Positions 4,574 through 51,913 of a stretch of 64,000 nucleotides of DNA are shown here, in pieces. Source of the DNA: Dehalococcoidia bacterium (GTDB lineage: Bacteria > Chloroflexota > Dehalococcoidia > UBA2979); contig OZ219871.1 of the NCBI GenBank assembly GCA_964291495.2, positions 352,001 to 416,000 on the forward strand, read 5' to 3'. Made by a program: the position numbers and the translations under genes. Position 1 is the stretch's first letter. Each line of letters begins with the position of its first letter. The notes below the pieces were generated by a model, which saw only the letters and a program-made list of their open reading frames with translations, was not told the DNA's origin and made no database searches.

Positions 4574-4972
4574 TCACTCGGTGGCGTCCGACCGGCTCAA
4601 TTGGCCGGGCCAGGCGAGGATCCGCTGATCTGCCGTGACGAGTTGATGGTTTTCGAGGGCCGTCGCGACGATCAGCCGATCGGCGGGGTCGCCATGCATG
4701 GCGGGCAGCAGGCCCGCGCGGGCCGCGATGCGGCCATCGACGGGTATCTCGACCAACCCCTGATTGATGAGGTCGCGGCGCCAGGCATCCAGGTTCAGGG
4801 CAAAGTCGAGATCGCCCTTCTGGACTCGCATGCCGATCTCCCAGAAGGAGATGGCCGACACTGCCGCCTCGCCCGCGTGTAGGGAGCGTTCGAGAAGTTG
4901 GCGAGTCCTGCGCCCAAGTCTCCGGTCGCCTTGCTCCTGCCACACCAGCACATGGGTGTCGAGCAGTATCAA
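4574..4972 (-). CDS. vapC: type II TA toxin, VapC/PIN domain
   Basis: LLDTHVLVW, VSAISFWE, HGDPADRLIVATA, LVTAD; TTG start overlapping antitoxin stop. Confidence 0.9.
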   Translation of the reverse strand: MILLDTHVLVWQEQGDRRLGRRTRQLLERSLHAGEAAVSAISFWEIGMRVQKGDLDFALNLDAWRRDLINQGLVEIPVDGRIAARAGLLPAMHGDPADRLIVATALENHQLVTADQRILAWPGQLSRSDATE

Positions 4973-5253
4973 AGCGGATCCTGCCCGGAGTGGGCAGCGT
5001 CTTCGAACCACTCCGCGGGCATCGGCTCGACGATGTCGCCAAGGATCTTGATCTTGTCCCGGTTCCGGCCGAACACCATGCTCGGCTTCTCCCGATAGGG
5101 TGCTAGCCGTGACACCGGACGACCGTTCTTGGTGATGACTATCTCCTCGCCGCTCTCGGCGACCTCGTCCATGAGCTTGAGACACCGGGCCTTGAACTCG
5201 GAGGCCTTGATCGTTCTCGGGCTCCCGCTGGACCAGCTGTCGGCTGACACCAT
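4969..5253 (-). CDS. type II TA antitoxin, Phd/YefM family
   Basis: IKASEFKARCLKLMDEV..GEEIVITKNGRPV. Confidence 0.9.
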   Translation of the reverse strand: MVSADSWSSGSPRTIKASEFKARCLKLMDEVAESGEEIVITKNGRPVSRLAPYREKPSMVFGRNRDKIKILGDIVEPMPAEWFEDAAHSGQDPL

Positions 5254-6985: not shown

Positions 6986-7546
6986 GTGGACGTCGACGAA
7001 GTGCTGCTCGACGCCGACGACCGCATGGACAAGGCGGTGGAGTCGCTGCGCCAGGCGCTGGCGGCCGTGCGCACGGGCCGGGCCAACACCGCGATCGTCG
7101 AGCGCCTCCAGGTGTCCCACTACGACCAGGTGATGCCGCTCAACCAGCTCGCGACACTCGCCGCGCCGGAGCCGACGCTGGTCACCGTCCAGCCCTGGGA
7201 CAAGTCCGCGCTGCAACCGATCATGAAGGCGCTCCAGGCGAGCGACCTCGGGATCACGCCGAGCAACGACGGCACCACGATCCGGCTGCCGATCCCGCCG
7301 CTCACCGAGGAGCGCCGCCGCGAGCTGGTGAGGCTGGTGGGCGCGCGCTCCGAGGAAGGCAAGGTCGCGGTCCGCAACATCCGCCGCCAAGCCATCGACG
7401 AGCTGCGCAAGGCGCTGCGCTCGGGCGAGCTCTCCGAGGACGAGGAGCGCCGCGCGCTTACCGACGTCGAGGAGATCACCGGGGCGCACACGAAGCAGAT
7501 CGACGAGATTGGACAGCAAAAGGAGCAGGAGCTCCTCGAGATCTAG
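6986..7546 (+). CDS. frr: ribosome recycling factor
   Basis: RTGRAN, QPWDKS, LGITPSNDG, IPPLTEERR, VAVRNIRR. Confidence 0.97.
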   Translation: MDVDEVLLDADDRMDKAVESLRQALAAVRTGRANTAIVERLQVSHYDQVMPLNQLATLAAPEPTLVTVQPWDKSALQPIMKALQASDLGITPSNDGTTIRLPIPPLTEERRRELVRLVGARSEEGKVAVRNIRRQAIDELRKALRSGELSEDEERRALTDVEEITGAHTKQIDEIGQQKEQELLEI

Positions 7547-7675
7547 AGCCGCCGCCCGGCCGCCCGCGACGCCGCGGGGAATCGACGGACTTCGGATTGG
7601 CGACCCGCTCCGCGAGGGGAACTGACCTGATACGGTGCGAGGCGCAGGGCATGGAGCAGACCGGGGTGAAGCCGC

Positions 7676-8476
7676 ATGTCCGTGAGCCAGGCCGGGGGTC
7701 CAGCAAGCATGGTCGTTGAGCCCGCCGCGAGCGATGTCGCGAGTCCCGCGGACGAGGCGCTGCCCCGCCACGTCGCGATCATCATGGACGGCAACGGCCG
7801 CTGGGCGCGCGAGCGCGGACTGAGCCGCCAGCGCGGCCACCGCGCGGGCGCCGACCGCATCCGCGCCGTGGTCGAGCGCCTCGGCGAGCACGGCGTCCCG
7901 ATCGTCACGCTCTTCGCCTTCTCCACCGAGAACTGGGGGCGGCCTCGCGGCGAGGTGGACTACCTGATGCGCCTCGCCGGCCGCGTGATCGACCGCGAGC
8001 TGGACTCGCTCGACGAGGCGGGCATCCGCCTGCGCCACATCGGCGACCTCTCGCCGCTCCCGAACTCGCTCCAGCGGAAGGTGGAGGGCGCGGTCGCCCG
8101 GACCGCCGGGAACGACCGCATCACCGTCAACCTCGCCTTCAACTACGGTGGCCGCTCCGACATCGTCGGCGCGGTCCGGCAGTTGATCGCCGACGGCGTC
8201 GCGCCCGGTGACGTGGACTCGGAGGCGATCGCGAGCCGCCTCGCGACCGCCGAGCTGCCGGACCCGGATCTGTTGATCCGCACGGCCGGGGAGCGCAGGC
8301 TCTCCAACTTCCTGGTCTGGGAGTCGGCCTACAGCGAGTACTACTTCACCCCCACGCTCTGGCCGGACTTCGGGCCGCAGGACGTGGACGAGGCGCTTGG
8401 GGAGTACCGCCGCCGCCGCCGCCGCTTCGGGCTGGTCCCGGAACGCCAGGCGGAGCACGCGCACCCGGACGCCTGA
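7676..8476 (+). CDS. uppS: polyprenyl (undecaprenyl) diphosphate synthase
   Basis: HVAIIMDGNGRWA, FAFSTENWGRP, NYGGR, DLLIRTAGERRLSNF; start could be 7709. Confidence 0.95.
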   Translation: MSVSQAGGPASMVVEPAASDVASPADEALPRHVAIIMDGNGRWARERGLSRQRGHRAGADRIRAVVERLGEHGVPIVTLFAFSTENWGRPRGEVDYLMRLAGRVIDRELDSLDEAGIRLRHIGDLSPLPNSLQRKVEGAVARTAGNDRITVNLAFNYGGRSDIVGAVRQLIADGVAPGDVDSEAIASRLATAELPDPDLLIRTAGERRLSNFLVWESAYSEYYFTPTLWPDFGPQDVDEALGEYRRRRRRFGLVPERQAEHAHPDA

Positions 8477-8479
8477 CCC

Positions 8480-9265
8480 ATGCTGCGCATGCGGCTGCTG
8501 GTGGCGGCGATCGGGCTGCCGCTGCTGGCGCTCGTCATCGCGTTGCCCGAGCCCGTCTTCGCCGCCGCCATCTCGCTGTTGCTCGCAGCCGCCGCCGCCG
8601 AGATGTTCATCGCCGCCGCTGGCACGCGGCCCCTCTGGCAGCCGCTGGGCGCAGCCGCCGCGGCGGCCTTCGTCGCGCTCTGGATGCGCCAGGCGGCGGA
8701 GGGCTTCCCGCTCTGGACGCTGCTGCCGCTGCCCGCGATCGCGCTCTACGGCCTGCTGCGCCCCGGCCCTGGGCCGCGCCGCCTGCGCGAGGCCTGGTGG
8801 CTCGGCGCCGTCGCCTACATCGGCGTCCTCGGCGCGCACTGGCTGCTGCTGCGCGGGGAGCCCGAGGGCCAGCGCTGGCTGGTGGTGTTGCTCGGCGTCA
8901 CGATCGCCACCGACACCGGCGCCTACGCCGTCGGGAAGTGGCTCGGCCGCCACCCGCTCGCGCCGCGCATCTCGCCCGGCAAGACGCGCGAGGGCGCGAT
9001 CGGCGGCTTCCTCGCCGGCGCTGTCGCCGGCGCCGCGCTGCCGCTCGCGCTCGATCTCGAGGCCGAGGCAGCGGCGATCGGAGCGATCGCCGTGCTGCTG
9101 CCGATCGCGGCGCAGGCGGGCGACCTGCTGGAGTCGGCGCTGAAGCGGCGGATCGGCGTGAAGGACAGCTCCGGGCTGCTGCCGGGGCACGGCGGGCTGC
9201 TCGACCGGATGGACTCCCAGTTGCTCGCGGGGTCGTTGCTATACTGGGTGTTGCAGTGGCTCTAG
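8480..9265 (+). CDS. cdsA: phosphatidate cytidylyltransferase
   Basis: Multi-TM; DTGAY, ISPGKTREG, GDLLESALKR..GVKDS..LPGHGGLLDRMDS. Confidence 0.95.
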   Translation: MLRMRLLVAAIGLPLLALVIALPEPVFAAAISLLLAAAAAEMFIAAAGTRPLWQPLGAAAAAAFVALWMRQAAEGFPLWTLLPLPAIALYGLLRPGPGPRRLREAWWLGAVAYIGVLGAHWLLLRGEPEGQRWLVVLLGVTIATDTGAYAVGKWLGRHPLAPRISPGKTREGAIGGFLAGAVAGAALPLALDLEAEAAAIGAIAVLLPIAAQAGDLLESALKRRIGVKDSSGLLPGHGGLLDRMDSQLLAGSLLYWVLQWL

Positions 9266-9308
9266 CCACCGGCCCGGCCCTGCTCGCGGCGCACGGTTGG
9301 AGGTCCGC

Positions 9309-10469
9309 ATGACCGCGATCGGCATCGCGATCCTCGGCTCGACCGGCTCGATCGGCACCCAGACCCTCGACGTCGTACGCGGGCTGTCCGACCGCTTCCG
9401 CGTCGCCGCGCTCGCCGCCGGCGGCAACGTCTCACTGCTGCGCGAGCAGATCGAGGAGTTCCGCCCCAGCGCCGCCTGCGCCGCTCCGGGCGTCGAGGCG
9501 GACCGCCTCGCCTCGGAGTTCGGGCGCGACTCGTGGCTGCCGCTGGACGAGCTGGCCGTCCGGCCGGACGTCGACATCGTCGTCGTCGCCACCGCCGGGC
9601 GCCTCGGCCTGGAGCCGACGCTGCGAGCGCTCGAGGCGGGCAAGATCGTCGCGCTCGCCAACAAGGAGGTGCTCGTCGTCGGCGGGCACGTCGTGCGCGC
9701 CGCCCTCGAGGCGAACGAGCACCGCGGCGCGGAGCTGCGCCCGATCGACTCGGAGCACTCGGCGATCTGGCAGTGCCTCTGGGGCGAGCCGATCGAGACC
9801 GTCGATCGGCTCACACTCACCGCCTCCGGCGGCGCCTTCCGCGACTACGACATGGACGCGCTCGACCGCGTCACGCCGGAGCAGGCGCTCAAGCACCCCA
9901 ACTGGCAGATGGGCCCGAAGGTCACGATCGACAGCGCCACCCTCTTCAACAAGGGCCTCGAGGCGATCGAGGCGCGCTGGCTGTTCGACATCCCGATCGA
10001 CCGCGTCGACATCCTCCAGCACCGCGAGAGCATCGTGCACTCGATGGTCACCTACGCCGACGGCTCGATTAAGGCGCAGCTGGGCGAGCCGGACATGCGG
10101 CTGCCGATCCAGTGCGCGCTCACCTACCCGGAGCGCGCGCCGCAGCAGCCCGCGCCGCCGCTCGACCTCGCCGCGCGCGGGACCCTGAACTTCAGCGAGG
10201 TCGACACGAAGCGCTTCCCGGCGCTGCCGACGGTGCTGGAGGCGGGACGGCGCGGCGACACCTCTGCCGCCATGCTGTCCGGCGCGGACGAGTCCGCGGT
10301 CGAGCACTTCCTCGCCGGCCGCTGCCGCTTCACGGACATCGCCCGGCTGCTGGTGGAGGCGCTCGACGCGCACGAGGCGGACACGGACCCCGGCCTCGAG
10401 CAGCTGATCGCCGCCGACGCGTGGGGCCAGCGCTTCGTCAACGAGCGCGTCGCCGCCGGAATCCGCTGA
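9309..10469 (+). CDS. dxr: 1-deoxy-D-xylulose-5-phosphate reductoisomerase
   Basis: LGSTGSIG, LANKE, PIDSEHSAI, TASGG, HPNWQMG, NKGLE, PDMRLPI. Confidence 0.97.
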   Translation: MTAIGIAILGSTGSIGTQTLDVVRGLSDRFRVAALAAGGNVSLLREQIEEFRPSAACAAPGVEADRLASEFGRDSWLPLDELAVRPDVDIVVVATAGRLGLEPTLRALEAGKIVALANKEVLVVGGHVVRAALEANEHRGAELRPIDSEHSAIWQCLWGEPIETVDRLTLTASGGAFRDYDMDALDRVTPEQALKHPNWQMGPKVTIDSATLFNKGLEAIEARWLFDIPIDRVDILQHRESIVHSMVTYADGSIKAQLGEPDMRLPIQCALTYPERAPQQPAPPLDLAARGTLNFSEVDTKRFPALPTVLEAGRRGDTSAAMLSGADESAVEHFLAGRCRFTDIARLLVEALDAHEADTDPGLEQLIAADAWGQRFVNERVAAGIR

Positions 10470-10476
10470 GCAGGCG

Positions 10477-11694
10477 ATGAGCGACCGCGTGGACGTTCCG
10501 GCCGGCGAGTCAGGCCCGGAGCGCGGCGGCCCTCGCATCCCGCGCGCCCTCAACACCTTGATCGCGATCGCGGTCGCGCTGGCCGTGGCCTGGTGGTTCG
10601 CGCCCGATGCGGTCAGCTCGATGCTGCTCTTCATCGGCGTGCTCGTCGTGCTGGTGGTCGCGCACGAGCTGGCGCACTTCGCGACCGCGAAGCTGTTCGG
10701 CATCTACGTGCTGGAGTTCGGCGTGGGCTTCCCGCCGCGGATCGTGGGGCGGCAGTGGGGCGATACCGTCTACTCGCTGAACTGGACGCCCCTTGGCGGC
10801 TTCGTGCGGCTGCTCGGCGAGGAAGCCCCGGACCACCCGCGCTCCCTCGCCGCCGCGGCGCGCTGGAAGCGCTTCATCGTGCTGGTCTCCGGCTCCGTGG
10901 TGAACCTGCTGCTGCCGATCCTGCTCTTCGCCGTCGCTTTCACGATCCCCCACGAGGAGTCGATCGGCCGGGCGGTCGTCGAGCAGGTCGTGCCCGGCGC
11001 GCCGGCGGAGGCCGCCGGCTTCCTCAGCGGCGACGTGATCTACGAGGTGGGCGGGCGCGACGCGCAGAACGTCGCCGCGGCCATCCGGTTGATCCGCCTC
11101 AACCTCGGCAAGGAGATCGACGTCGTCGTACGGCGCGGCCAGGTGTACGAGACGCTGCGCGTCGAGCCGCGCTGGACGCCGCCGAGCGGCCAGGGCCCGA
11201 CCGGGATCATAGTCCGCTCGCAGTGCACGTTCGTTGGCGGCGAGGGCTGCGTGCCGTTCACGGAGACGGTCTCGCAGCCGCCGTGGGAGTCGATCCCCGG
11301 GGGGGCGCGCGCCACCCTCGACGCGATGATCCTCGCGCGCAACGAGCTGGTGTCCTGGTTCAAGGGCGGCAACAGCCCGGCCGTGGCCGGCCCGGTCGGG
11401 ATCGCCCAGACCACGGGCGAGGTCGCGCGCGAGGGCGGCGTAACGCCCCTGCTGATGCTCGCGGCGCTGCTCTCGATCAATCTCGGCGTCCTCAACCTGC
11501 TGCCGCTGCCGATGCTCGATGGCGGGCGCATCTTCTTCCTGTTGATCGAGGTGCTGCGCGGGGGCCGACGGATCGCGCCGGCGAAGGAGGCGCTCGTCCA
11601 CCTCGTGGGCTTCATCGCCTTCATCGCGCTGGCGATCGTGATCACCTTCGCGGACATCGCGCGCATCGCCAGCGGCGACTCGCTGTTCAATTAG
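10477..11694 (+). CDS. rseP: RseP-like M50 intramembrane zinc protease with PDZ domain
   Basis: HELAH, GFPP, PLGGFVRL, AGPVGI, NLLPLPMLDGG; canonical position between dxr and ispG. Confidence 0.93.
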   Translation: MSDRVDVPAGESGPERGGPRIPRALNTLIAIAVALAVAWWFAPDAVSSMLLFIGVLVVLVVAHELAHFATAKLFGIYVLEFGVGFPPRIVGRQWGDTVYSLNWTPLGGFVRLLGEEAPDHPRSLAAAARWKRFIVLVSGSVVNLLLPILLFAVAFTIPHEESIGRAVVEQVVPGAPAEAAGFLSGDVIYEVGGRDAQNVAAAIRLIRLNLGKEIDVVVRRGQVYETLRVEPRWTPPSGQGPTGIIVRSQCTFVGGEGCVPFTETVSQPPWESIPGGARATLDAMILARNELVSWFKGGNSPAVAGPVGIAQTTGEVAREGGVTPLLMLAALLSINLGVLNLLPLPMLDGGRIFFLLIEVLRGGRRIAPAKEALVHLVGFIAFIALAIVITFADIARIASGDSLFN

Positions 11695-11700
11695 CGGGGC
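11653..11700 (+). repeat. 48-bp direct repeat, left copy (3' end of rseP)
   Basis: GACATCGCGCGCATCGCCAGCGGCGACTCGCTGTTCAATTAGCGGGGC, identical at 12372-12419. Confidence 0.97.
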
Positions 11701-12025
11701 TGCGGCTGCGTCGGTCGATTCGGGCGGGCTGGTAGCGTCGCACGCTGATCTCGTCCGCACGCGCACGCATTCGCGAGGCGTCGTGCCACGCCTGCATCCG
11801 CAGCAGCATGTCCATGCCGATGTCGAAGGCCTTCTCGATTCGCAGCGCCATCTCAGGCGAGAGCTTCGCGTTGCCGTTCAGCAGGTCAGAGAGCGTCGCC
11901 CGGCGCACGCCTAGAATCTCGGCCGCCTTCGTGACGCTGAGGCCCAACTCCTCGATGACCTCGGTGCGGACGAACTCGCCCGGGTGCGAGGGCGTCATGT
12001 TCACTTCGATACTGCCGTCACTCAT
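11687..12025 (-). CDS. higA: HigA-family addiction module antitoxin (HTH-XRE)
   Basis: PSHPGE, LSVTKAAEILGVRRATLSDLLNG, SPEMALRIEKAF, LLRMQ. Confidence 0.92.
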   Translation of the reverse strand: MSDGSIEVNMTPSHPGEFVRTEVIEELGLSVTKAAEILGVRRATLSDLLNGNAKLSPEMALRIEKAFDIGMDMLLRMQAWHDASRMRARADEISVRRYQPARIDRRSRSPAN

Positions 12026-12315
12026 CAGTGGTAGTCCTCCAGGTTCAGGCGATCGATGTAGCCGCCCTCTTCCTCGAACGTGATCCGCCAGCCTTCCGAT
12101 GCGGACACTCTCCACGCACCTCGAGGCCGCCCCGAGACCAGTTCGATTCGCCAGCCAGGCGGTGCATCGGCGATGAACCGCCTTATGTCCACGGCCAACA
12201 TCAGCGCAGCCAACACCTTGCGAACCCGATCGTCCATCCCGCGCCCGAGGTACGGGGCCCTGTCGTCTGAGATCACGCGGCGCAATAGCGGGTGGCGAAC
12301 GGAGCGGATGATCAT
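12025..12315 (-). CDS. higB: HigB-like RelE-superfamily toxin (divergent)
   Basis: IRSVRH, WRITF, C-terminal LEDYH; toxin-first order upstream of higA. Confidence 0.82.
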
Positions 12316-12322
12316 CCCTGCA

Positions 12323-12352
12323 ACTGTACGGTTATACCGTACGCCCCTGCAA
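12323..12352 (-). promoter_or_regulatory. higBA promoter with palindromic operator
   Basis: Minus strand TTGCAG-N18-TACAGT; perfect inverted repeat GTACGGT-TAT-ACCGTAC at 12326-12342. Confidence 0.6.
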
Positions 12353-12371
12353 ACGCTGCCCGACACGAGCC

Positions 12372-12419
12372 GACATCGCGCGCATCGCCAGCGGCGACTC
12401 GCTGTTCAATTAGCGGGGC
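12372..12419 (+). repeat. 48-bp direct repeat, right copy (duplicated rseP 3' end)
   Basis: Identical to 11653-11700. Confidence 0.97.
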
Positions 12420-12525
12420 CTCCGTCGCGGCATCCCGTTGTGACGCGCAACATCCGACGCCCGAAGCGTCCCGGTTGACACGCCGCCCCGATGCCCCCGA
12501 CGATCAAGGCGATGGAGGCTGGCTA

Positions 12526-13659
12526 GTGGCTCGCAACAAGACCCGCAGCGTGTCCGTCGGGCCGCTCACGATCGGCGGCGGCGCGCCGATCGCCGTGCAG
12601 TCGATGGCCGCCACGAAGACCCAGGACATCGAGGCCACCGTCCGGCAGGTCGAACTGCTGGAGCAGGCCGGCGCCGACATCGTGCGTATCGCCGTCGACT
12701 CCCGGAAGGACGTGGAGGCGCTGGCCGAGGTGCGCGCCCGCACGGCGGCGACGCTCTCCGTGGACCTGCAGGAGAACTACCGCCTCGCCACTATCGTCGC
12801 GCCGCACGTCAACAAGATCCGCTACAACCCCGGCCACCTCTGGCACCACGAGCGCGACAAGCCCGTGCGCGACAAGGTCGCCTTCATCGCCGAGACCGCC
12901 GAGGCGAACGACTGCGCGCTGCGCGTCGGCGTCAACTGCGGCTCCGTCGACCCCGTGCAGATCGAGGCCCACGGCGACGACGACGTGGGCGCGATGGTCG
13001 CCAGCGCACTGGAGCACTGCGAGTTCCTCGACAGCATGGGGTTCGAGCGCTACGTCGTCTCGCTCAAGGACTCGGACTGGCGCAAGGTCGTCGAGGGCAA
13101 CCGCCGCTTCGCGTCGCAGCGCCCGGACGTGCCGCTGCACCTCGGCGTGACCGAGGCGGGCATGCTGCCGGAGGGCGAGATTAAGACGCGCCTGGCCTTC
13201 GAGCAGCTGGTCCCGGAGGGCATCGGCGACACGGTGCGCGTCTCGCTGACGCTGCCGTTCGAGGACAAGGGCACGGAGATCGAGGCCGGACGGCGCATCC
13301 TCGCAGACATCGAGTCGGGACGCTTCCGCTCGATGCCGACGGTCCTCGACGACGGCCTCAACATCATCTCCTGCCCCTCCTGCTCCCGCGTGGAGAACGA
13401 GGCGTTCATCGAGCTGGCGCAGGACGTGCGCAAGATCACGGCCTGGGCGAAGCAGCACGACGTCACGATCGCGGTGATGGGCTGCCGCGTGAACGGGCCC
13501 GGCGAGACGGACGACGCCGACCTCGGCCTCTGGTGCGGCCCGGTGGCCGTGAACCTGAAGCGCGGCCCGGAGCTGGTCGGCTCCTTCCCCTACGACGAGG
13601 TGCTCGAGCACCTGCAGCGCGAACTAGAGTCGATAGTCGAGGGGCGCTCAACGGCGTGA
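12526..13659 (+). CDS. ispG: (E)-4-hydroxy-3-methylbut-2-enyl diphosphate synthase
   Basis: [59 protein letters not shown]; TTGACA at 12475 upstream. Confidence 0.94.
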
Positions 13660-16745: not shown

Positions 16746-17522
16746 CTATCGCCCCTGCCAGTTCGGGTCGCGCTTCTCCGCGAAGGCGCGCGCGCCCTCC
16801 TTGATGTCCTCGGAGTTGACGACCGGCAGCGACAGCCACGCGCCGAGGCGGTAGGAGTCGTCGATCTTCGCCATCCGCCAGGCCTGGATCATCGCCTTCG
16901 TCGCCTGCACCGAGAGCGGCGCGTTCGAGGCGATCTGCTCGGCCAGCTCGATCGCACGAGGCATCAGCTGCTCCGGCGGGTCCACCACCTCCGAGACGAT
17001 GCCGAACTGCAGCGCCTGCTCCGGCTCCACGCGGTCGCCGACGAGCAGCACGTGGTTGGCGGCCGAGAGGTTCGTGATCCTCGGCAGGTGGTGAATCGCG
17101 TAGCCGGCGATGATGCCGCGCCGGGGCTCGAACAGGCCGACGTAGGCGTTCGAGGCCATGATCCGGATGTCGCAGTCCAGCGCCTGCTCCAGGCCGCCGC
17201 CGACGGCGAGCCCGTTGATCGCCGCGATGAACGGCTTGGGGCTACCCGAGTAGACCAGCCGCGGCACCTGGCCGGTCTGCCGCTGGGAGACGCCCTCGCC
17301 GGTGTTGGCGCGGTCGGCGGCCTCCTTCAGGTCCATGCCGGCGCTGAAGGCGCGGCCCGCACCCGTCAGGATGCCGACCCGCATGTTCGGGTCTGCGTTG
17401 AAGTCGTCGACGTGCTCCGCCATCTCCGCGCGCAACTGGCCGCCGAGGGCGTTGAGCCGCTCGGGCCGATTGAGCGTGAAGATCGCGTAGAAGTCCCGCT
17501 TCTCGTACAACGCGTCAGGCAT
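16746..17522 (-). CDS. enoyl-CoA hydratase/isomerase family protein
   Basis: LNRPERLNAL, AFSAGMDL, KPFIAAING, GGGLE, FE, EG..AF.EKR.P. Confidence 0.92.
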   Translation of the reverse strand: MPDALYEKRDFYAIFTLNRPERLNALGGQLRAEMAEHVDDFNADPNMRVGILTGAGRAFSAGMDLKEAADRANTGEGVSQRQTGQVPRLVYSGSPKPFIAAINGLAVGGGLEQALDCDIRIMASNAYVGLFEPRRGIIAGYAIHHLPRITNLSAANHVLLVGDRVEPEQALQFGIVSEVVDPPEQLMPRAIELAEQIASNAPLSVQATKAMIQAWRMAKIDDSYRLGAWLSLPVVNSEDIKEGARAFAEKRDPNWQGR

Positions 17523-17594
17523 GGTTCCCCCTTGTCTGCCTTGCGGTGCTCCCTCTGCTTCTGCTGTATCCTGCGTCGCCGCGGCGCGGACGCC

Positions 17595-18371
17595 TCAGCG
17601 CCCCTGCCACACGGGGTCGCGCTTCTCCGCGAAGGCCTGCGGCCCCTCTCGGGCGTCCTCGGAGTCGAGGACCACCGCGTCGATCCACTGGTAGAGCCGG
17701 TAGTTGTCGTCGATGCTCGCCATGCGCCAGGCCTGGATCTCCGCCTTGGTGCCGTGCACGGAGAGCGGCGCGTTCTCCGCGATCATCTGCGCGATCTCGA
17801 CCGACCGCGGGATCAGCCGCTCCGGCTCGACGACCTCGCTCACCACGCCCCACTCGAGGGCCTGATCGGCCTCGATGGCGTCGGCGGTGAGCAGCATGTA
17901 GGCGGCTGCGGTGGAGCCGACGACGCGCGGGAGGTGGTGCATCGCGTAGCCCGCCATGATTCCGCGCTTCGGCTCGAACAGCCCGACGTAGGCGTCCGAG
18001 GACATGATGCGGATGTCGCAGTCGAGGGCGATCTCCAGGCCTCCGCCGATCGCGAGCCCGTTGATCGCCGCGATGAACGGCTTGGGGCTGCGCGAGAAGT
18101 CCATCAGCTCCACGCGGCCCTCGGGGCGAACCCCGGTGACGGCGTCCCCGCTCGCGGCGCGGTCCGCGGCCTCCTTGAGGTCCATACCCGCGCAGAACGC
18201 GCGCCCGGACCCGGTCAGGATCCCGGCGCGCATCTTCGGATCGGCGTTGAAGTCCGCGATCGCCTCGTCGAGCTGGTCCATCAGCGCGCCGCCGAGGGCG
18301 TTGAGCCGCTCCGGGCGGTTGAGCGTGAAGATCGCGTAGGCGTCGTGCTTCTCGTACAGGAGCTCACTCAT
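17595..18371 (-). CDS. enoyl-CoA hydratase/isomerase family protein (tandem paralog)
   Basis: MSELLYEK..LNRPERLNAL, AFCAGMDL, GGGLEIAL; same length (777 nt) as its neighbour. Confidence 0.92.
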   Translation of the reverse strand: MSELLYEKHDAYAIFTLNRPERLNALGGALMDQLDEAIADFNADPKMRAGILTGSGRAFCAGMDLKEAADRAASGDAVTGVRPEGRVELMDFSRSPKPFIAAINGLAIGGGLEIALDCDIRIMSSDAYVGLFEPKRGIMAGYAMHHLPRVVGSTAAAYMLLTADAIEADQALEWGVVSEVVEPERLIPRSVEIAQMIAENAPLSVHGTKAEIQAWRMASIDDNYRLYQWIDAVVLDSEDAREGPQAFAEKRDPVWQGR

Positions 18372-21187: not shown

Positions 21188-21310
21188 TCGGCCTCCTCCA
21201 CGCGCCGCTCCGGGCCCCCGCGCGGGCCCGCGGCGATGCTACACCAGCGCCGCGCTCCATTCCCGCGCCCGATGGAGGCCTTCGCGTAGCCCTCACCTCG
21301 AGGCAGCGAG

Positions 21311-21516
21311 CGCATCCCCTCCGGTCCCCTCTCCCCCAGGGAGAGGGTCAGGGTGAGGGAGGGTCCGCCTTCCGGGATTGCGTTGAGCCATCGGGGGTTC
21401 CGGAGGTGCGCGGGAGTCTTCCCCTCACCCCCGCCCTCTCCCCCAGGGAGAGGGAGCCGGATCGGGCTTGTGGAAGTCCGCAAAGGTCTCCGATGAGAGT
21501 GGGTGAGGGGGATGCG
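21311..21516. repeat. REP/MITE-like palindromic element (copy B)
   Basis: Inverted homolog of copy A; 9-bp terminal inverted repeat CGCATCCCC/GGGGATGCG. Confidence 0.9.
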
Positions 21517-22151: not shown

Positions 22152-22239
22152 TGGCGGAGGGGGTGGGATTCGAACCCACGACAGCTTGCACTGCGACGGT
22201 GTTCAAGACCGCTCCCTTAAACCACTCGGGCACCCCTCC
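22152..22239 (-). tRNA. tRNA-Ser (anticodon TGA)
   Basis: GGAGGGG acceptor stem, GCGGT-CTTGAAC-ACCGT anticodon arm, long variable arm, GTTCGAATC T-loop, G73 and encoded CCA. Confidence 0.95.
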
Positions 22240-24968: not shown

Positions 24969-25376
24969 CTACGACGGCGAGACGTCCAGGCCTTCAGCGG
25001 TGGCGGCGCGAGCCAGTTGCGCATCAAGCGTCGCCAGCGGCGCTCCGCGCCGCACGCCCAGTTCCAGGTACAGCGCGTCGTAGAAGGACAGGCCGTGGTC
25101 GCGTGCCAGGTTGAGGGCCACCTGCAGATCGGCCTCTCGATCCGTTTCGATGGGCAGCCATGTCAGTTTGTCCAGGAATTCAACGGCGTCACTCCCGCCG
25201 AGGCGGCCCCGTCGCTCTGCGACCAGCAGTGTGTTTCGCACTTCGTAGTGCCAGAGCGGCGGTACAACTGCCCCTTCCTCGCTGAGCTGCGCGATGGCTG
25301 CTTCGGTGCCCGGATCGAACTCATCCTCGAGGAGCCAGGACGCTGCGACAGAAGCGTCGAGAACGAGAAGGTTCAC
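24969..25376 (-). CDS. vapC: type II TA toxin, VapC/PIN domain
   Basis: VLDASVA, EVRN, LSFYDALYL, LATLD; GTGA overlap with antitoxin. Confidence 0.9.
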   Translation of the reverse strand: MNLLVLDASVAASWLLEDEFDPGTEAAIAQLSEEGAVVPPLWHYEVRNTLLVAERRGRLGGSDAVEFLDKLTWLPIETDREADLQVALNLARDHGLSFYDALYLELGVRRGAPLATLDAQLARAATAEGLDVSPS

Positions 25377-29091: not shown

Positions 29092-29121
29092 TTGCACAGC
29101 ATGCTTGACGCATGCTATCGT
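29092..29121 (+). promoter_or_regulatory. TA promoter with tandem GCATGC operator palindromes
   Basis: TTGCAC-N18-TATCGT; AGCATGCT and GCATGC inside the spacer; ATG 6 nt after the -10 box. Confidence 0.6.
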
Positions 29122-29127
29122 CATGAC

Positions 29128-29361
29128 ATGGCGAACCTGCAGGTGAAGAACGTGCCCGACTCACTCCACGAACGTCTGCGCCGCCACGCGCAGGAGCAGA
29201 ACATCACGCTTGGCGCCGCCGTGCTCAACGCCGTCGAGCGCGAACTGGCGAGGGCCGAGTGGCGCCGCCGCCTGGCGCAGCGCCCGACAACCTACCTCGG
29301 CATCCCCGCCGCAGATCTGCTCGTCGCAGAGCGCTCCGAACGCGAGACGGAGCTTGGGTGA
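29128..29361 (+). CDS. type II TA antitoxin, ribbon-helix-helix (FitA/VapB-like)
   Basis: MANLQVKNVPDSLHERLRRHA; overlaps downstream PIN gene. Confidence 0.85.
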   Translation: MANLQVKNVPDSLHERLRRHAQEQNITLGAAVLNAVERELARAEWRRRLAQRPTTYLGIPAADLLVAERSERETELG

Positions 29362-29759
29362 CGGGCTACGTCGTCGACGCCTCGGTCGCCGTCGAGTACC
29401 TCCTCAGGACACCGCTCGGACTCGCCCTCGCCGACATGATGGAGAGCGGCCCTCTCGCAGCGCCCGAGCTGATCGATGTCGAGGTGGTCTCGGTGTTGCG
29501 CAAGGCCGTGCTTCATGGCCGCCTCGACGAGGCGCGAGCACTGATGGCGATCGACGACCTGGAGTTCTGGCCGGTCGAACGACTGCCGCACGCGGAGTTC
29601 GCGCGGTCCGCCTGGCAGTACCGCCACAATGTCAGCGCCTATGATGCCTTCTACGTGGCCGTCGCCGACGCCCTCGCGCTGCCCCTGCTGACCGCCGACG
29701 GGCGGCTCTCGCGGGCCTCGGGGCTGGGCGTCGCCGTGCAGCACGTGTACATGAGCTGA
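29358..29759 (+). CDS. vapC: type II TA toxin, VapC/PIN domain
   Basis: VVDASVAV, APELIDVEV, SAYDAFYVA, LLTAD. Confidence 0.9.
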   Translation: MTGYVVDASVAVEYLLRTPLGLALADMMESGPLAAPELIDVEVVSVLRKAVLHGRLDEARALMAIDDLEFWPVERLPHAEFARSAWQYRHNVSAYDAFYVAVADALALPLLTADGRLSRASGLGVAVQHVYMS

Positions 29760-45259: not shown

Positions 45260-46459
45260 GTGGACGCCGCCGCATTCACCAACCCATCGGGCCAACTCGT
45301 CACGCAGCGCCCTCGCGGCGGCGGGCGCTACCTGACGTTCGTCCCGAACCCGCTGCCGCCCCCGCCCGAGATCGCGCAGGCCGCGATTGCGAGCGCTGGC
45401 GCGCTGCTCGCCGATGCCGAGTACTGGCTCGGGCAGCTGATCGGCCTCGGCGGCGTACTCCACGACGCGAACGCACTGGCCGCACCGTACATCCGGCACG
45501 AGGCCGTCCGCAGCTCCCAGATCGAGGGCACCCGGACCTCGATCGGCGACCTTGCGGCCTTCGAGGCGGTGCCCGAGTCGCAGCCGCTCGACGGGGACGC
45601 CCAGGAGACGCTGAACTACGTCGCCGCGCTTGACGAGGGTCTGGACCGCATCCGGGACGGCGGCGCGATCGATGCCGACCTCGTTCGCGACCTGCACCGC
45701 ACGCTGATGGCGGGTGCAGGCGACGAGGTGCGCAGTGCCCCGGGCGAGTTCCGGACCGTCCAGAACTACATCACCGCCGGTGGCGCGCCGATCTACACCC
45801 CGCCGCCGCCCGACCGGATGCTCGACTGCCTCGACAGCCTGTTCGGCTACATCGACTCGCAACCGGAAGCACCGCCGCTGGTGGAGATCGCGTGGGTGCA
45901 CTACGCCTTCGAGGCGATTCACCCCTTCCGCGACGGCAACGGCCGTGTCGGGCGGATCCTGATGCCGCTGCTGCTCGCCCGGCGGCGAGGGTTGGAGCAT
46001 CCGCTGCTCTACCTGAGCCCCTACCTCTTCGAGCACCGGCAGGAGTACTACGACCGCCTCTTCGCCGTCAGCGCACGCAGCGACTGGCCTGGCTGGCTGG
46101 CGTTCATGCTGCGAGCCGTCGCTTCGCGCGCGCAGGCATCCGTCGCGACGGCGCAGCGCCTGATGGCCATCGAGGACGAGTGGCGACTGCGGCTCGAGGA
46201 GGCCGGCGCGACTCCCACGGCGCTCCGCCTCGCAGTGCTGATCCGGCGCCAGTCGCTCGCGGTCACCGCACCGCACGCGATCGGCCTGCTCGCCGGGGCC
46301 GGCTCCCCGGTCACCCCGCCGACCGCCTACCAGGCGATCGCCGACCTCGAGCGCGCCGGCATCGTGACCGAGATCACCGGCCGGGCCCGTGGGCGCATCT
46401 GGCTGGCCCGCGAGCTCGTAGACCTGCTCGAAGGCGACGAGGGCGGCGCGGGCTCGTAG
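45260..46459 (+). CDS. Fic family protein (class II, N-terminal inhibitory motif)
   Basis: HPFRDGNGRVGR; SSQIEG inhibitory motif; C-terminal wHTH-like region. Confidence 0.92.
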   Translation: MDAAAFTNPSGQLVTQRPRGGGRYLTFVPNPLPPPPEIAQAAIASAGALLADAEYWLGQLIGLGGVLHDANALAAPYIRHEAVRSSQIEGTRTSIGDLAAFEAVPESQPLDGDAQETLNYVAALDEGLDRIRDGGAIDADLVRDLHRTLMAGAGDEVRSAPGEFRTVQNYITAGGAPIYTPPPPDRMLDCLDSLFGYIDSQPEAPPLVEIAWVHYAFEAIHPFRDGNGRVGRILMPLLLARRRGLEHPLLYLSPYLFEHRQEYYDRLFAVSARSDWPGWLAFMLRAVASRAQASVATAQRLMAIEDEWRLRLEEAGATPTALRLAVLIRRQSLAVTAPHAIGLLAGAGSPVTPPTAYQAIADLERAGIVTEITGRARGRIWLARELVDLLEGDEGGAGS

Positions 46460-49073: not shown

Positions 49074-49958
49074 CTAGTCGAAGACGGAGAGCGCCCGCGC
49101 GATGCCTGCGCGATCGTCGGGCGCGGGCGCGAGCACCAGCGTGACGCCCTCGGCGGCCCACGCCTCCGCCTGCTCCCGCACCTCCGAGGGCGTGCCCACC
49201 AGGCAGGCGTCGGCGATGAAGCGCTCGGAGATCGCGGCGAGGCGGGCTTCATCGTCACCGGCCGCGACCGCCGCCCTCGCGGCGGCCACCTCGTCGTGGT
49301 AGCCGGCCTCCTCGAAGTAGGCCTGGTAGTAGGGCCGCGAGAAGTAGAGGAACAGCTTGTCGCGCGCCGCCGCGAGGGCGGCCGCGCGGTTCTCGTCGAC
49401 CGCCGTCGGGATGAAGGTGCCCACGAAGAAGTCGTCGCGCTGCTCGGGCGGGATCACGGCGAGCGAGGTCGCCATGCGCGAGCGGAGGCCGTTGGCCCAG
49501 AGCGCGCCGTCCGCGATCTCGGTGGCGAGGACCGTCATGCGCCGTCGCAGCGTCGCGAGGACGAGGCGAGGGAACGCCGCGCCCTCGGTGTTCGCGCGCA
49601 TCTCGGCAACGTACTCGCGCATGTCCGAGAGCGGCCTGCCGACGCTGAGCCCCAGTTCCGCGTGCGTCGGCTGATGCGAGACGCCGAGCCCGAGCATGAG
49701 CCGCCCCGGGTGGAGCTCCTCGATCAGCGAGCCCGCCTGCGCCATCAGGTGCGGGTGCCGCAGGTAGATGTGCGCGATGCCCGTGGCGACGCTGATGCGC
49801 TCGGTGCGCTCGAGGACGGCGAGCAGGAAGGCGATGTTGTCGCCGCGGCTCGGGGACCAGACGCCGGGGAAGCCGCGCCGCTCCACCTCCTGTGCGAGCG
49901 CGAGCTTGTCCGCGCGTGTGCCGGCCTCGTCCCAGATCCTCAGGTACGGCTTCTCCAT
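49074..49958 (-). CDS. LLM class oxidoreductase
   Basis: TGIAHIYLRHP, PGRLMLGLGVSH, LVGTP. Confidence 0.88.
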   Translation of the reverse strand: MEKPYLRIWDEAGTRADKLALAQEVERRGFPGVWSPSRGDNIAFLLAVLERTERISVATGIAHIYLRHPHLMAQAGSLIEELHPGRLMLGLGVSHQPTHAELGLSVGRPLSDMREYVAEMRANTEGAAFPRLVLATLRRRMTVLATEIADGALWANGLRSRMATSLAVIPPEQRDDFFVGTFIPTAVDENRAAALAAARDKLFLYFSRPYYQAYFEEAGYHDEVAAARAAVAAGDDEARLAAISERFIADACLVGTPSEVREQAEAWAAEGVTLVLAPAPDDRAGIARALSVFD

Positions 49959-49985
49959 CCCCGTCTCCCCTTCCGCCGCTCCGCG

Positions 49986-50870
49986 CTACTCGAACGCGGC
50001 GAGGGCGCGCTCCGCGCCGTCGGGATCATCGGCCGGGGTGGCGAGCACGAGCGTCACGTCCTCGTCCGCCCAGGCCTCCGCCTGCTCGCGCACCTCGGAG
50101 GCCGTCCCCACGAGGCAGGAGTCGGCGATGAAGCGCTCCGAGATCGCCGCGGGCAGCGCCTCGCGGTCGCCGTCAGCGATCGCCGCGCGGGCCGCGGCGA
50201 CCTCGTCGTGGTAGCCGGCCTCCTCGAAGTAGGCCTGGTAGTAGGGCAGCCGGAAGTAGTTGCGCAGCAGGTCGCGCGCGGCGGCGAGGGCGGCCGCGCG
50301 GTCGTCGTCGACCGCCGTCGGGATGATGTTGCCGACGAAGAAGCCCTCGCGCCGCTCGGGCGGGACCCCGGCGAGCGAGCTGGCCATATGCGAGCGGAGA
50401 CCGTTCGCCCAGAGCGCGCCCTCGGCGATCTCGCCGGAGAGCGCGGTCATGCGACGGCGCAGCGTCGCGAGGACGAGGCGCGGCAACGGACCGCCCTCCG
50501 TGCCCGCGCGCATCTCGCCGACGTACCCGCGCATGTCCGCGAGCGGCCGGCCGACGCTCAGCCCCAGCGCCGCGTGGATCGGCTGGTGCGAGACCCCGAG
50601 CCCGAGCAACAGCCGCCCCGGGTGCAGCTCCTCGATCAGCGAGCCCGCCTGCGCCATCAGCTGCGGGTGCCGCAGGTAGATGTGGGCGATGCCGGTGCCG
50701 ACCTGGATGCGCTCGGTGCGGTCGAGGATCGCGAGCAGCAACGCGAGGTTGTCGCCCCGGCTCGGCGCCCAGACGCCCGGGAAGCCACGCCGCTCGAGCT
50801 CCTGCACGAACGCCATCTGGTCCGGGCGAGATCCGGGTTGGTCCCGGATCATCAGGTACGGCTTCTCCAT
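49986..50870 (-). CDS. LLM class oxidoreductase (tandem duplicate)
   Basis: Same length (885 nt) as its neighbour, with long identical blocks. Confidence 0.88.
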   Translation of the reverse strand: MEKPYLMIRDQPGSRPDQMAFVQELERRGFPGVWAPSRGDNLALLLAILDRTERIQVGTGIAHIYLRHPQLMAQAGSLIEELHPGRLLLGLGVSHQPIHAALGLSVGRPLADMRGYVGEMRAGTEGGPLPRLVLATLRRRMTALSGEIAEGALWANGLRSHMASSLAGVPPERREGFFVGNIIPTAVDDDRAAALAAARDLLRNYFRLPYYQAYFEEAGYHDEVAAARAAIADGDREALPAAISERFIADSCLVGTASEVREQAEAWADEDVTLVLATPADDPDGAERALAAFE

Positions 50871-50914
50871 CGCGGTCTCCCTTCCCGGTCTCTCGCGCTC
50901 GCCGCGCGCGAGGG

Positions 50915-51913
50915 CTACTCGCCCGCCTCGCGGACGGTGTTGCGCAGCGGCTCGCCGCGCGCCCAGCGTACGAGGTTGTCGAAGAAGATCTCGGCCGCGC
51001 GCGGGTCGTTGCCCGCCGAGGCGCCGGAGTTGTGCGGCGTGACGATCACGCGCGGCAGATCCCAGAGCGGCGAGTCCTCGGGCAGCGGCTCCTCCGCGAA
51101 GACGTCGAGGTAGGCGCCGCCGAGCTGCCCCGACCGCAGCGCCTCGATCAGCGCCGGCTCGTCGACGACGGGGCCGCGCGCGACGTTGAGCACGTGCGCC
51201 CCGCGCGGCATCGCCGCGAACGCCGCGGCGTCGAACAGCCCTCGCGTCTCGGCGGTGAGCGGACAGGCGAGCGCGAGCCACTCCGCGCGCGGCAGCAGCG
51301 AGGGCAGCGCGTCGGGGTGGTGCAGCTCATCGACGGGGTCGCCCTCGCGAGCCGGGCTGCGCCGCACGCCGACGACGTGCAGCCCGATCGCGCGGGCGAT
51401 GCGCGCGATCGCCGACCCGATCGCGCCCAGCCCGAAGACGACGAGCGTCTGGTCGAGGAGGTCGGGGCGCCCTCGGTCCTCGGCCGGCTCCCAGGCATGC
51501 CGTTGCTGCGCGTCCGCGTAGGAGGGGAAACCGCGCGAGAGAGCGAGCAGGCCGGCGATCGCCGACTGCGCGATTGGCTCCGCCGTCGCGCCGGCCGCAG
51601 TCGAGAGGGTGACGCCACGCGCCAGCATCCGCCCGAAGATGGGGTGGTCGACGCCGGCGTTGCGCGTGTGCAACCAGCTCAGGCGCGGCGCACGGTGCAG
51701 CGCGGAGAAGAAGCTGCGCGCCAATGGACCGGCGATCAGGTCGGCGCTGTAGTAGGCGAGGTCGATGCGCTCGCACTGCTCGTCGCTGAGTCGTGCGTCG
51801 GGGTCCGGCGGCACGGTGATGACCTCGGCCTCGAGGCCGGCCTCGGCGAGGGCGCCCCGCAGCTGTTCGCCGTAGCGCCCCACGAACCACTCGGACGTGA
51901 GGATTCCTGCCAT
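50915..51913 (-). CDS. D-2-hydroxyacid dehydrogenase
   Basis: AGVDH, GLGAIG, PLTAET, NVARG, AYLDVF..EPLP, TPHNSG. Confidence 0.92.
   Translation of the reverse strand: MAGILTSEWFVGRYGEQLRGALAEAGLEAEVITVPPDPDARLSDEQCERIDLAYYSADLIAGPLARSFFSALHRAPRLSWLHTRNAGVDHPIFGRMLARGVTLSTAAGATAEPIAQSAIAGLLALSRGFPSYADAQQRHAWEPAEDRGRPDLLDQTLVVFGLGAIGSAIARIARAIGLHVVGVRRSPAREGDPVDELHHPDALPSLLPRAEWLALACPLTAETRGLFDAAAFAAMPRGAHVLNVARGPVVDEPALIEALRSGQLGGAYLDVFAEEPLPEDSPLWDLPRVIVTPHNSGASAGNDPRAAEIFFDNLVRWARGEPLRNTVREAGE

Follow-up and report, generated by a model that had tools for sequence, protein, structure and literature searches.

A higBA toxin–antitoxin islet between direct repeats of the rseP 3' end is polymorphic among Dehalococcoidia and probably old

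Chromosomal toxin–antitoxin (TA) pairs are patchily distributed and lack mobility genes, and their gain and loss are rarely visible at base-pair resolution. The closest described systems include islands that lie between direct repeats duplicating the 3' end of their target and have no recombinase of their own. In the account given in PMC5704250, cis-mobilizable elements (CIMEs) by definition lack integration and transfer genes but keep both attachment sites, attL and attR, and PMC3146451 describes 15 ssrA islands of Dehalococcoides without an integration module. The microcin H47 island of Escherichia coli, 13 kb long, integrase-free and flanked by extensive imperfect direct repeats, is described as excising and integrating by host functions independently of RecA, with its mobility shown experimentally (PMC3191183, PMC5426353). 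Homology-facilitated illegitimate recombination (HFIR) is described as a recombinase-free entry of a short foreign fragment beside a homologous anchor (PMC3240628). Here we analyze a two-gene higBA islet in a 64-kb stretch of a high-GC Dehalococcoidia genome (contig OZ219871.1, G+C 71.7%; hereafter the window), where it lies between rseP and ispG and is flanked by a perfect 48-bp duplication of the rseP end. From comparison with related genomes we consider it probable, though by no means certain, that this is an old chromosomal type II islet, that its insertion gave rise to a second copy of about 50 bp of the rseP end, and that it has since been inherited, lost and swapped by host recombination.

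The target gene, rseP (10477-11694, + strand), encodes a site-2 (M50) intramembrane metalloprotease with a PDZ domain (PF02163, 1.6e-51; TIGR00054, 190.8 bits against a cut-off of 147.55). The 48-mers at 11653-11700 and 12372-12419, both on the + strand, are identical, as a preliminary description of this DNA had reported, and exact-repeat comparison finds mismatched bases adjacent to them on either side. The repeat consists of the final 13 codons of rseP, the stop codon (11692-11694 in the left copy) and 6 nt, and its right copy is non-coding. With one mismatch allowed it extends to 51 nt (11650-11700 and 12369-12419). The chance expectation for an exact 48-nt pair, calculated from the base composition of the window, is about 1e-16, and the repeat is unique of its kind here: the remaining exact repeats of at least 20 nt fall within tandem paralogues (16.7-18.3 kb; 49.2-50.9 kb) or within copies of a short dispersed element. 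Between the two copies lie 671 bp containing higB and most of higA, both on the - strand, with no further family-matched open reading frame (ORF). A perfect 7-3-7 palindrome (12326-12342) lies upstream of higB. The genes and a candidate operator are thus present as first proposed, while the promoter also proposed was not recovered; a consensus scan of 11500-12600 found no sigma-70-type site, and so we claim no promoter for the islet. The description of the islet as integrase-free holds, since it contains two genes only and Pfam scans of the 63 ORFs in the window identified no integrase, transposase, resolvase or recombinase.

To place the islet among related genomes, we used a genome scan with an RseP query, which returned 76 loci, all from Chloroflexota or Dehalococcoidia metagenome-assembled genomes with one genome per species. 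About 13 kb was compared per relative (about 6 kb of flank), and the islet genes were sought by tblastn with the window proteins. The 10 closest species-level relatives have RseP proteins 86-96% identical to that of the window, and five of them carry higBA at the rseP-ispG site. These five genomes (L003, L004, L005, L006 and L007) share the junctions and gene order of the window, with 84-96% identity to it for higA and 59-64% for higB. The other five (L001, L002, L008, L010 and L019) are empty, with a single rseP end and a spacer of 115-138 bp, and L009 (RseP 76-77%) is likewise empty. No higA or higB match at E <=1e-5 was found by tblastn in the other 65 loci. Junction alignment indicates that the empty site is the rseP end joined to the sequence found right of the right repeat in occupied genomes, which is the arrangement that had been predicted; a discrete insertion into the dxr-rseP-ispG block is supported. 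The islet begins and ends no more than about 30 nt from the repeats, and none of the six islets contains additional DNA. Global pairwise alignments of occupied with empty genomes scattered short sequence across the insert in every comparison except window versus L001, and were not used for boundaries. One empty spacer, that of L019, contains a 23-bp perfect tandem duplication (L019:7227-7272).

Maximum likelihood trees of the flanks (dxr, rseP minus its last 39 nt, and ispG) group the window with L001, L002, L005, L003 and L006 in one clade, and L004 with a cluster of L007, L008 and L010 in a second. L019 falls outside both clades on the combined and left-flank trees and joins the second on the ispG tree only. 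Occupied and empty genomes are mixed in each clade; four to five changes of state are needed, at least two to three of which are forced by well-supported branches. The division in higA identity to the window, 96% versus 84%, mirrors the two flank clades.

The state of the flanking repeat differs among carriers. The right copy was sought by local alignment of each genome's rseP end to the region right of the palindrome, with 300 shuffles. It matches at 50 of 51 positions in the window (score 97 versus a shuffle maximum of 24), over about 55 nt with small gaps in L006 (36 exact; 84 versus 26), and at 36 of 39 positions in L003 (63 versus 30). No right copy scored above the shuffles in L004, L005 or L007, and the junction alignment indicates that in L005 it was lost together with most of the spacer. 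A vestigial right copy in L004 and L007, suggested by a first alignment, was rejected when local alignment and shuffles gave it no support; the aligned stretch is a spacer motif that, by eye, is found also in the empty sites of L008 and L010.

We tabulated a 42-nt gap-free core of the repeat for evidence of concerted evolution. In the window, three adjacent sites forming the last sense codon of rseP have a state shared by both copies, with another state in all 10 relatives; the C-terminal residue of RseP is Asn in the window and Arg in those relatives. The two copies in L006 have two derived sites in common, at which 9 of 10 and 10 of 10 relatives differ. Those of L003 differ from each other at three core sites and four sites after the stop codon. 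Repeat copies within a genome thus appear to evolve in concert in two lineages and to decay in a third. Because lineage-specific substitutions are shared by both copies, the perfect identity of the window repeat probably reflects gene conversion rather than youth, and we infer that gene conversion or recombination between the copies is the homogenizing process.

Divergence of the islet genes also indicates that the islet is old. By Nei-Gojobori estimates, synonymous divergence (dS) of higA between carriers is 0.30-0.57, versus 0.17-0.21 for rseP in the same pairs; being at least as large as that of rseP, it argues for an old islet. The ratio of nonsynonymous (dN) to synonymous divergence for higA is about 0.03-0.17, consistent with purifying selection. 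The preliminary description had taken perfect repeat identity to suggest a recent insertion. That reading is not supported, given islet dS at or above that of the flanks, a repeat decayed or absent in other carriers and the substitutions common to both copies. One pair of carriers departs from this pattern. Between L003 and L006, dS is 0.014 for higA and 0 for higB versus 0.17 for rseP, and the islet interior has only 3 mismatches in 634 nt (7223-7856), the lowest count of all 634-nt segments in 13.2 kb (median 29). To the left, mismatches begin again at 7219-7222; to the right they do so at 7857, 7859 and 7871, about 28 nt short of the right repeat. The flanks around this near-identical interior are about 4% diverged. 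The islet interior, almost alone, was thus exchanged recently between the L003 and L006 lineages. An exchange limited to the interior makes movement of the islet by homologous recombination plausible, a route that had been suggested from the window sequence.

Overall we favor the following sequence of events. A 0.67-kb islet would have entered the rseP-ispG spacer in the ancestor of a group of species-level lineages, probably once, and its entry would have left about 50 bp of the rseP 3' end in two copies. The islet would then have been inherited, lost and swapped among lineages by host homologous recombination rather than by an element-encoded recombinase. Gene conversion may keep the flanking copies identical in the window and nearly so in L006, while the copies would have drifted apart in L003 and disappeared in L005, perhaps also in L004 and L007. 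Intact direct repeats would offer a substrate for precise loop-out deletion, recreating the empty site, and we infer that deletion has occurred through them; alternatively, recombination in the flanking core genes may have brought in empty alleles. The islet presumably persists under purifying selection on the antitoxin. As to its origin, the tight cassette without extra DNA in six genomes, together with the lack of a recombinase or of a second use of the site, inclines us to small-fragment insertion rather than to a large island that decayed.

Several points weigh against this account. Gene conversion was not directly observed, and repeated excision and re-integration via the repeat predicts the same shared substitutions. 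The low-divergence tract in L003 and L006 runs nearly end to end with the islet, stopping about 5 nt away on the left and about 28 nt inside on the right, a pattern more in keeping with a discrete mobile unit than with random recombination tracts. L004 and L007, having no significant duplication, could represent a separate insertion, or the original one. The flank tree is based on three genes and leaves most forks within the clades without resolution, so that the number of gains and losses is uncertain. All relatives are metagenome-assembled genomes, in which consensus or polishing effects are possible. Finally, the sequence compared in each relative spanned about 13 kb, and integrases elsewhere in those genomes would lie outside this view.

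The first alternative is an active minimal integrative unit, in which about 0.72 kb, comprising higBA and one repeat copy, loops out as a circle and re-enters the rseP end by recombination within the 48-bp repeat, using either host functions or a recombinase whose gene lies outside the islet; the repeats would be homogenized every time. Such cycles would account for the lineage-specific changes present in both exact copies, the interleaved occupancy on the flank tree, the tight cassette ending close to the repeats, and the L003/L006 interior that is bounded near the repeats by diverged flanks; the H47 island, as described in the sources cited above, provides a precedent for integrase-free excision between direct repeats. 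However, the three mismatches inside the right end of the L003/L006 islet precede the right repeat, indicating that this crossover took place within the islet rather than in the repeat, and in every other pair islet divergence equals or exceeds that of the flanks. In addition, half of the six carriers have no usable right repeat, the islet is found in no other context among the 76 loci, and a 0.7-kb circle would have no replication or transfer function. We regard an active unit as unlikely but, given how closely the L003/L006 tract coincides with the islet, worth retaining. Its most far-reaching form, to which we attach equally little weight, would be a recombinase-free 'TA mini-island' whose cycling relies on host recombination at the 48-bp repeat that it carries, with retention by addiction and spread between species-level lineages. 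If that were true, the cycles could overwrite the end of the essential rseP gene and might explain the unique C-terminal Asn in the window, and the mini-island would be a concrete route by which chromosomal TA modules move without a mobility gene.

A second alternative, which we find about as doubtful, is that the locus is the decayed remnant of a larger site-specific, CIME-like island: an integrase-bearing element would have entered the 3' end of rseP and later been deleted down to the TA pair. Direct repeats derived from a target gene's 3' end are the classical sign of attL and attR, and the integrase-less CIMEs and ssrA islands show that such remnants are described. The form of a CIME, with putative attL and attR and no integration genes, fits the window, L003 and L006, but the other three of the six carriers have no detectable right copy. 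The same two genes are present in all six islets without residual island DNA, and the islet ends lie close to the repeats (about 30 nt or less), a pattern not predicted for a deletion remnant.

The wider set of loci also argues against such a remnant. Thirteen more distant loci have an enlarged rseP-ispG spacer of 0.35-1.9 kb (L011, L013, L014, L017, L020, L022, L023, L025, L026, L027, L030, L040 and L045), with cargo that is unrelated to higBA, and no accompanying rseP-end duplication was found. The cargo includes a GyrI-like protein, a glycolipid-binding protein, DUF2975, a cupin, an IS481-family transposase (L020) and unannotated ORFs. None of the 63 ORFs in these spacers encodes a tyrosine or serine recombinase or a TA module, and no rseP-end duplication scored above the shuffles, save a marginal one in L014 (30 versus a shuffle maximum of 26); none of the 13 loci combines an rseP-end duplication with other cargo. 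Neither these loci, at the rseP end, nor the window ORFs yielded a tyrosine or serine recombinase. The search for an integrase with a matching site, proposed in the preliminary description, thus came back empty here, and the rseP end as a recurrent attachment site was rejected as a candidate. Among the 76 loci, within about 6 kb of flank and at one genome per species, we identified no autonomous element using the same site. The rseP-ispG spacer is generally permissive, and we see no sign of a site-specific system directed at the end of rseP. Searches of plasmids and phages found no donor replicon: the islet DNA matched alphaproteobacterial plasmids only at about 69-70%, in genes annotated as HigA or RelE/ParE, with no match covering 80% of the query, and it gave no match to phages.

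A fresh, independent insertion in the window lineage, with repeat identity reflecting youth, is already disfavored and in our judgment very improbable. It would fit the 48/48 identity of the repeat and the lower G+C at third codon positions of the islet genes (0.86 for higA and 0.79 for higB, versus 0.96-0.97 for rseP and ispG). However, five other species-level genomes share the junctions and gene order, with higA dS of 0.30-0.57 relative to the window, and a donor copy would need the same rare codon that both window copies carry and 10 of 10 relatives lack; the mutated higA stop and divergent higB described below point to time in place or to recombination. A false duplication produced by assembly can be set aside almost entirely, because the same architecture, with differences of its own, is present in the independent long contigs of L003 and L006 (3.37 Mb and 1.90 Mb), and the interior encodes intact, conserved genes.

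We next consider the module that the favored islet carries, which we take to be a HigBA-type TA system with an atypical toxin. The toxin gene comes first, and the stop codon of higB and the start of higA share one base. HigA (11687-12025, - strand, 112 codons) is a helix-turn-helix (HTH-XRE) antitoxin that matches TIGR02607 over residues 10-87 (83 bits; cut-off 47.7) and PF01381 (1.1e-10), as well as the solved HigA chains 4mcx and 6chv (about 3e-9). In all five other islet-bearing relatives higA has 101 codons and ends in TGA. In the window, comparison of the ORFs of the six carriers and the junction alignment place this ancestral stop at 11720-11722 (- strand), where TGA has changed to CGA, adding 11 codons up to a TGA at 11687-11689 inside the left repeat. 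The earlier remark that higA has no stop of its own is thus explained by a point change specific to the window: the reading frame does end inside the repeat, but this is not a feature of the insert. All six islets retain the palindrome arms GTACGG and CCGTAC around a variable center, and the palindrome is a candidate HigA operator.

The toxin gene, higB (12025-12315, - strand, 96 codons), is tentatively assigned to the RelE/ParE superfamily as HigB-like from its full-length alignment to a solved HigB. Its product scores below the Pfam cut-off for PF05015 (8.6e-4; 20.2 bits against 27) and has no NCBIfam match. The best solved match is Proteus vulgaris HigB (4mct_B; full length, 3.5e-4), with the C-terminal Asp-Tyr-His aligned. 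There are 519 homologues, of which those among the matches listed carry PF05015. The nearest database protein (P0004) is 81% identical and the others at most 66%. Codons 1 to about 75 (12090-12315) represent a strongly divergent allele. Nucleotide identity to the five other islets is 52-75% across 12090-12325, versus 85-98% elsewhere, and the fall at about 12090, from above 90% to 52-75%, is sharp; for codons 7-75 against the other carriers dN is 0.32-0.43 and dS 0.68-1.0. The window higB is a mosaic allele, and the copy as a whole appears both mosaic and somewhat eroded, given its mutated higA stop and the divergent first ~75 codons of higB. In L004, a 1-nt insertion near codon 6 puts the canonical higB start codon in another frame, and the ORF is open from an upstream GTG (L004:7541-7870).

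The divergence of the toxin extends to residues implicated in catalysis. The part of PMC5027501 that deals with P. vulgaris HigB identifies His54, Asp90, Tyr91 and His92 as critical, with His54 the proposed general base and Asn71 setting adenosine specificity. The window HigB departs from the family consensus in 12 of 51 columns conserved at 90% or more. It has Glu aligned to His54, as does the 81% identical relative, at a position where His is 98% conserved in the family sample, and Pro and Gly in place of Arg60 and Asn71, with Arg73 and Asp-Tyr-His retained. The catalytic set is thus incomplete in the window, the His54 equivalent being replaced and Asp-Tyr-His kept, and judging from the alignment the activity of this toxin may be altered or attenuated. 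The same source notes that YoeB uses a Glu, so the replacement of His54 does not imply loss of function.

In the surrounding block, dxr (9297-10469) was assigned from family profile matches and precedes rseP. Downstream of the right repeat, the ispG upstream spacer (12420-12525, + strand) is the counterpart of the empty-site spacer in the junction alignment. It contains a TTGACA motif at 12475-12480 that is kept in all 11 aligned genomes, though the scan called no full promoter. It is followed by ispG (gcpE; 12526-13659, + strand), which starts with GTG and matches PF04551 (1.4e-99) and TIGR00612 (292.5 bits). The ispG frame of L006 has one in-frame stop or indel at the coordinates of the relatives (L006:8033-9163), a frameshift or an assembly error. 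A tRNA scan placed no tRNA near the islet, and an Rfam search of 11000-13000 (E up to 1) returned just two matches, both below threshold and attributable to chance. Elsewhere in the window, ARAGORN called a 97-nt tRNA-Arg at 8868-8964 inside the cdsA ORF, which is probably spurious, and a tRNA-Ser(tga) at 22152-22239 overlapping the called start of a phosphotriesterase gene ORF.

The window is rich in other TA-type genes: a Phd/YefM plus PIN-like ORF (4574-5253, -), a lone PIN (24972-25376, -), a ribbon-helix-helix (RHH) plus PIN pair (29092-29756, +), a Fic/DOC protein (45260-46456, +) and a Phd plus PIN pair (59762-60372, +). The preliminary description had suggested looking for further TA modules flanked by duplications, and none of those in the window is flanked by exact repeats of at least 16 nt (exact-repeat table; inexact repeats were not searched). 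A second variable TA spot is the spacer between a zinc-ribbon gene and rpsB (window 4969-5253), compared in L001-L010 and L019. The Phd antitoxin of the window has 52-72% matches there in 7 of the 11 relatives and none in L001, L002, L006 and L009, while its PIN-like partner matches L006 only, and partially; rpsB itself is 90-99% identical in the ten close relatives and 76% in L009. Tandem paralogues at 16746-18340 (enoyl-CoA hydratase-like, 846/849-nt spacing) and 49074-51281 (luciferase-like monooxygenases, 912-nt spacing) account for the other long exact repeats. The short dispersed element (1230-1500, 21310-21454 and 57600-57740) is G/C-rich with 23-32-nt exact direct and inverted matches, and has the look of a repetitive extragenic palindrome (REP) or a miniature inverted-repeat transposable element (MITE). 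A leucine-rich-repeat protein (63099-63998, +) reaches the end of the window.

The value of the rseP-ispG site lies in the range of states visible at a single position. Across 12 species-level genomes every stage is represented: empty sites, perfect repeats, decaying repeats, lost repeats, a recent islet-only exchange and a mosaic toxin. The parts are of known kinds and the host bacteria are uncultured, but together they give a testable picture in which host recombination alone would handle gain, loss and exchange of a TA islet, with gene conversion maintaining the flanking duplications. They also provide a caution: an insertion is not dated by the perfect identity of the repeats around it.

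Compared with described systems, the module itself most resembles HigBA of P. vulgaris (4mct, 4mcx). The two share the toxin gene upstream of the antitoxin gene, a HigA above the TIGR02607 cut-off, a HigB aligned over its full length with the C-terminal Asp-Tyr-His, and a palindrome upstream of higB. They differ in the window HigB falling under the Pfam cut-off, with Glu at His54 and Gly at Asn71, and in the 11-residue tail of HigA. As an insertion, the islet has Campbell-type features in its repeats of the target 3' end (window, L003 and L006) and in the single-copy empty site of six relatives, but it lacks the element-encoded integrase of such insertions. It shares with CIMEs and with the integrase-less ssrA islands the duplication of the target 3' end and the absence of its own recombinase. 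Unlike these, it targets a protein-coding gene and carries nothing beyond a TA pair, about 0.7 kb in all; the 76 loci yielded neither a cognate autonomous element nor a further use of the site, and its repeats show concerted evolution and decay rather than conserved attachment cores. With the H47 island it has in common a direct-repeat-flanked, integrase-free structure; it differs in being 0.7 kb long, in belonging to an uncultured lineage and in a mobility inferred from comparison only. The entry of a short fragment beside a homologous anchor, as HFIR is described, fits the tight cassette, and HFIR might conceivably leave a target duplication of this length. A full-text literature search, judged from its result entries alone, yielded no description of a comparable TA islet. 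What sets this islet apart from CIMEs, ssrA islands and H47 is the combination of a 0.7-kb size, TA-only cargo, an essential protein-coding target gene, and flanking repeats that evolve, as it appears, by concerted evolution and decay.

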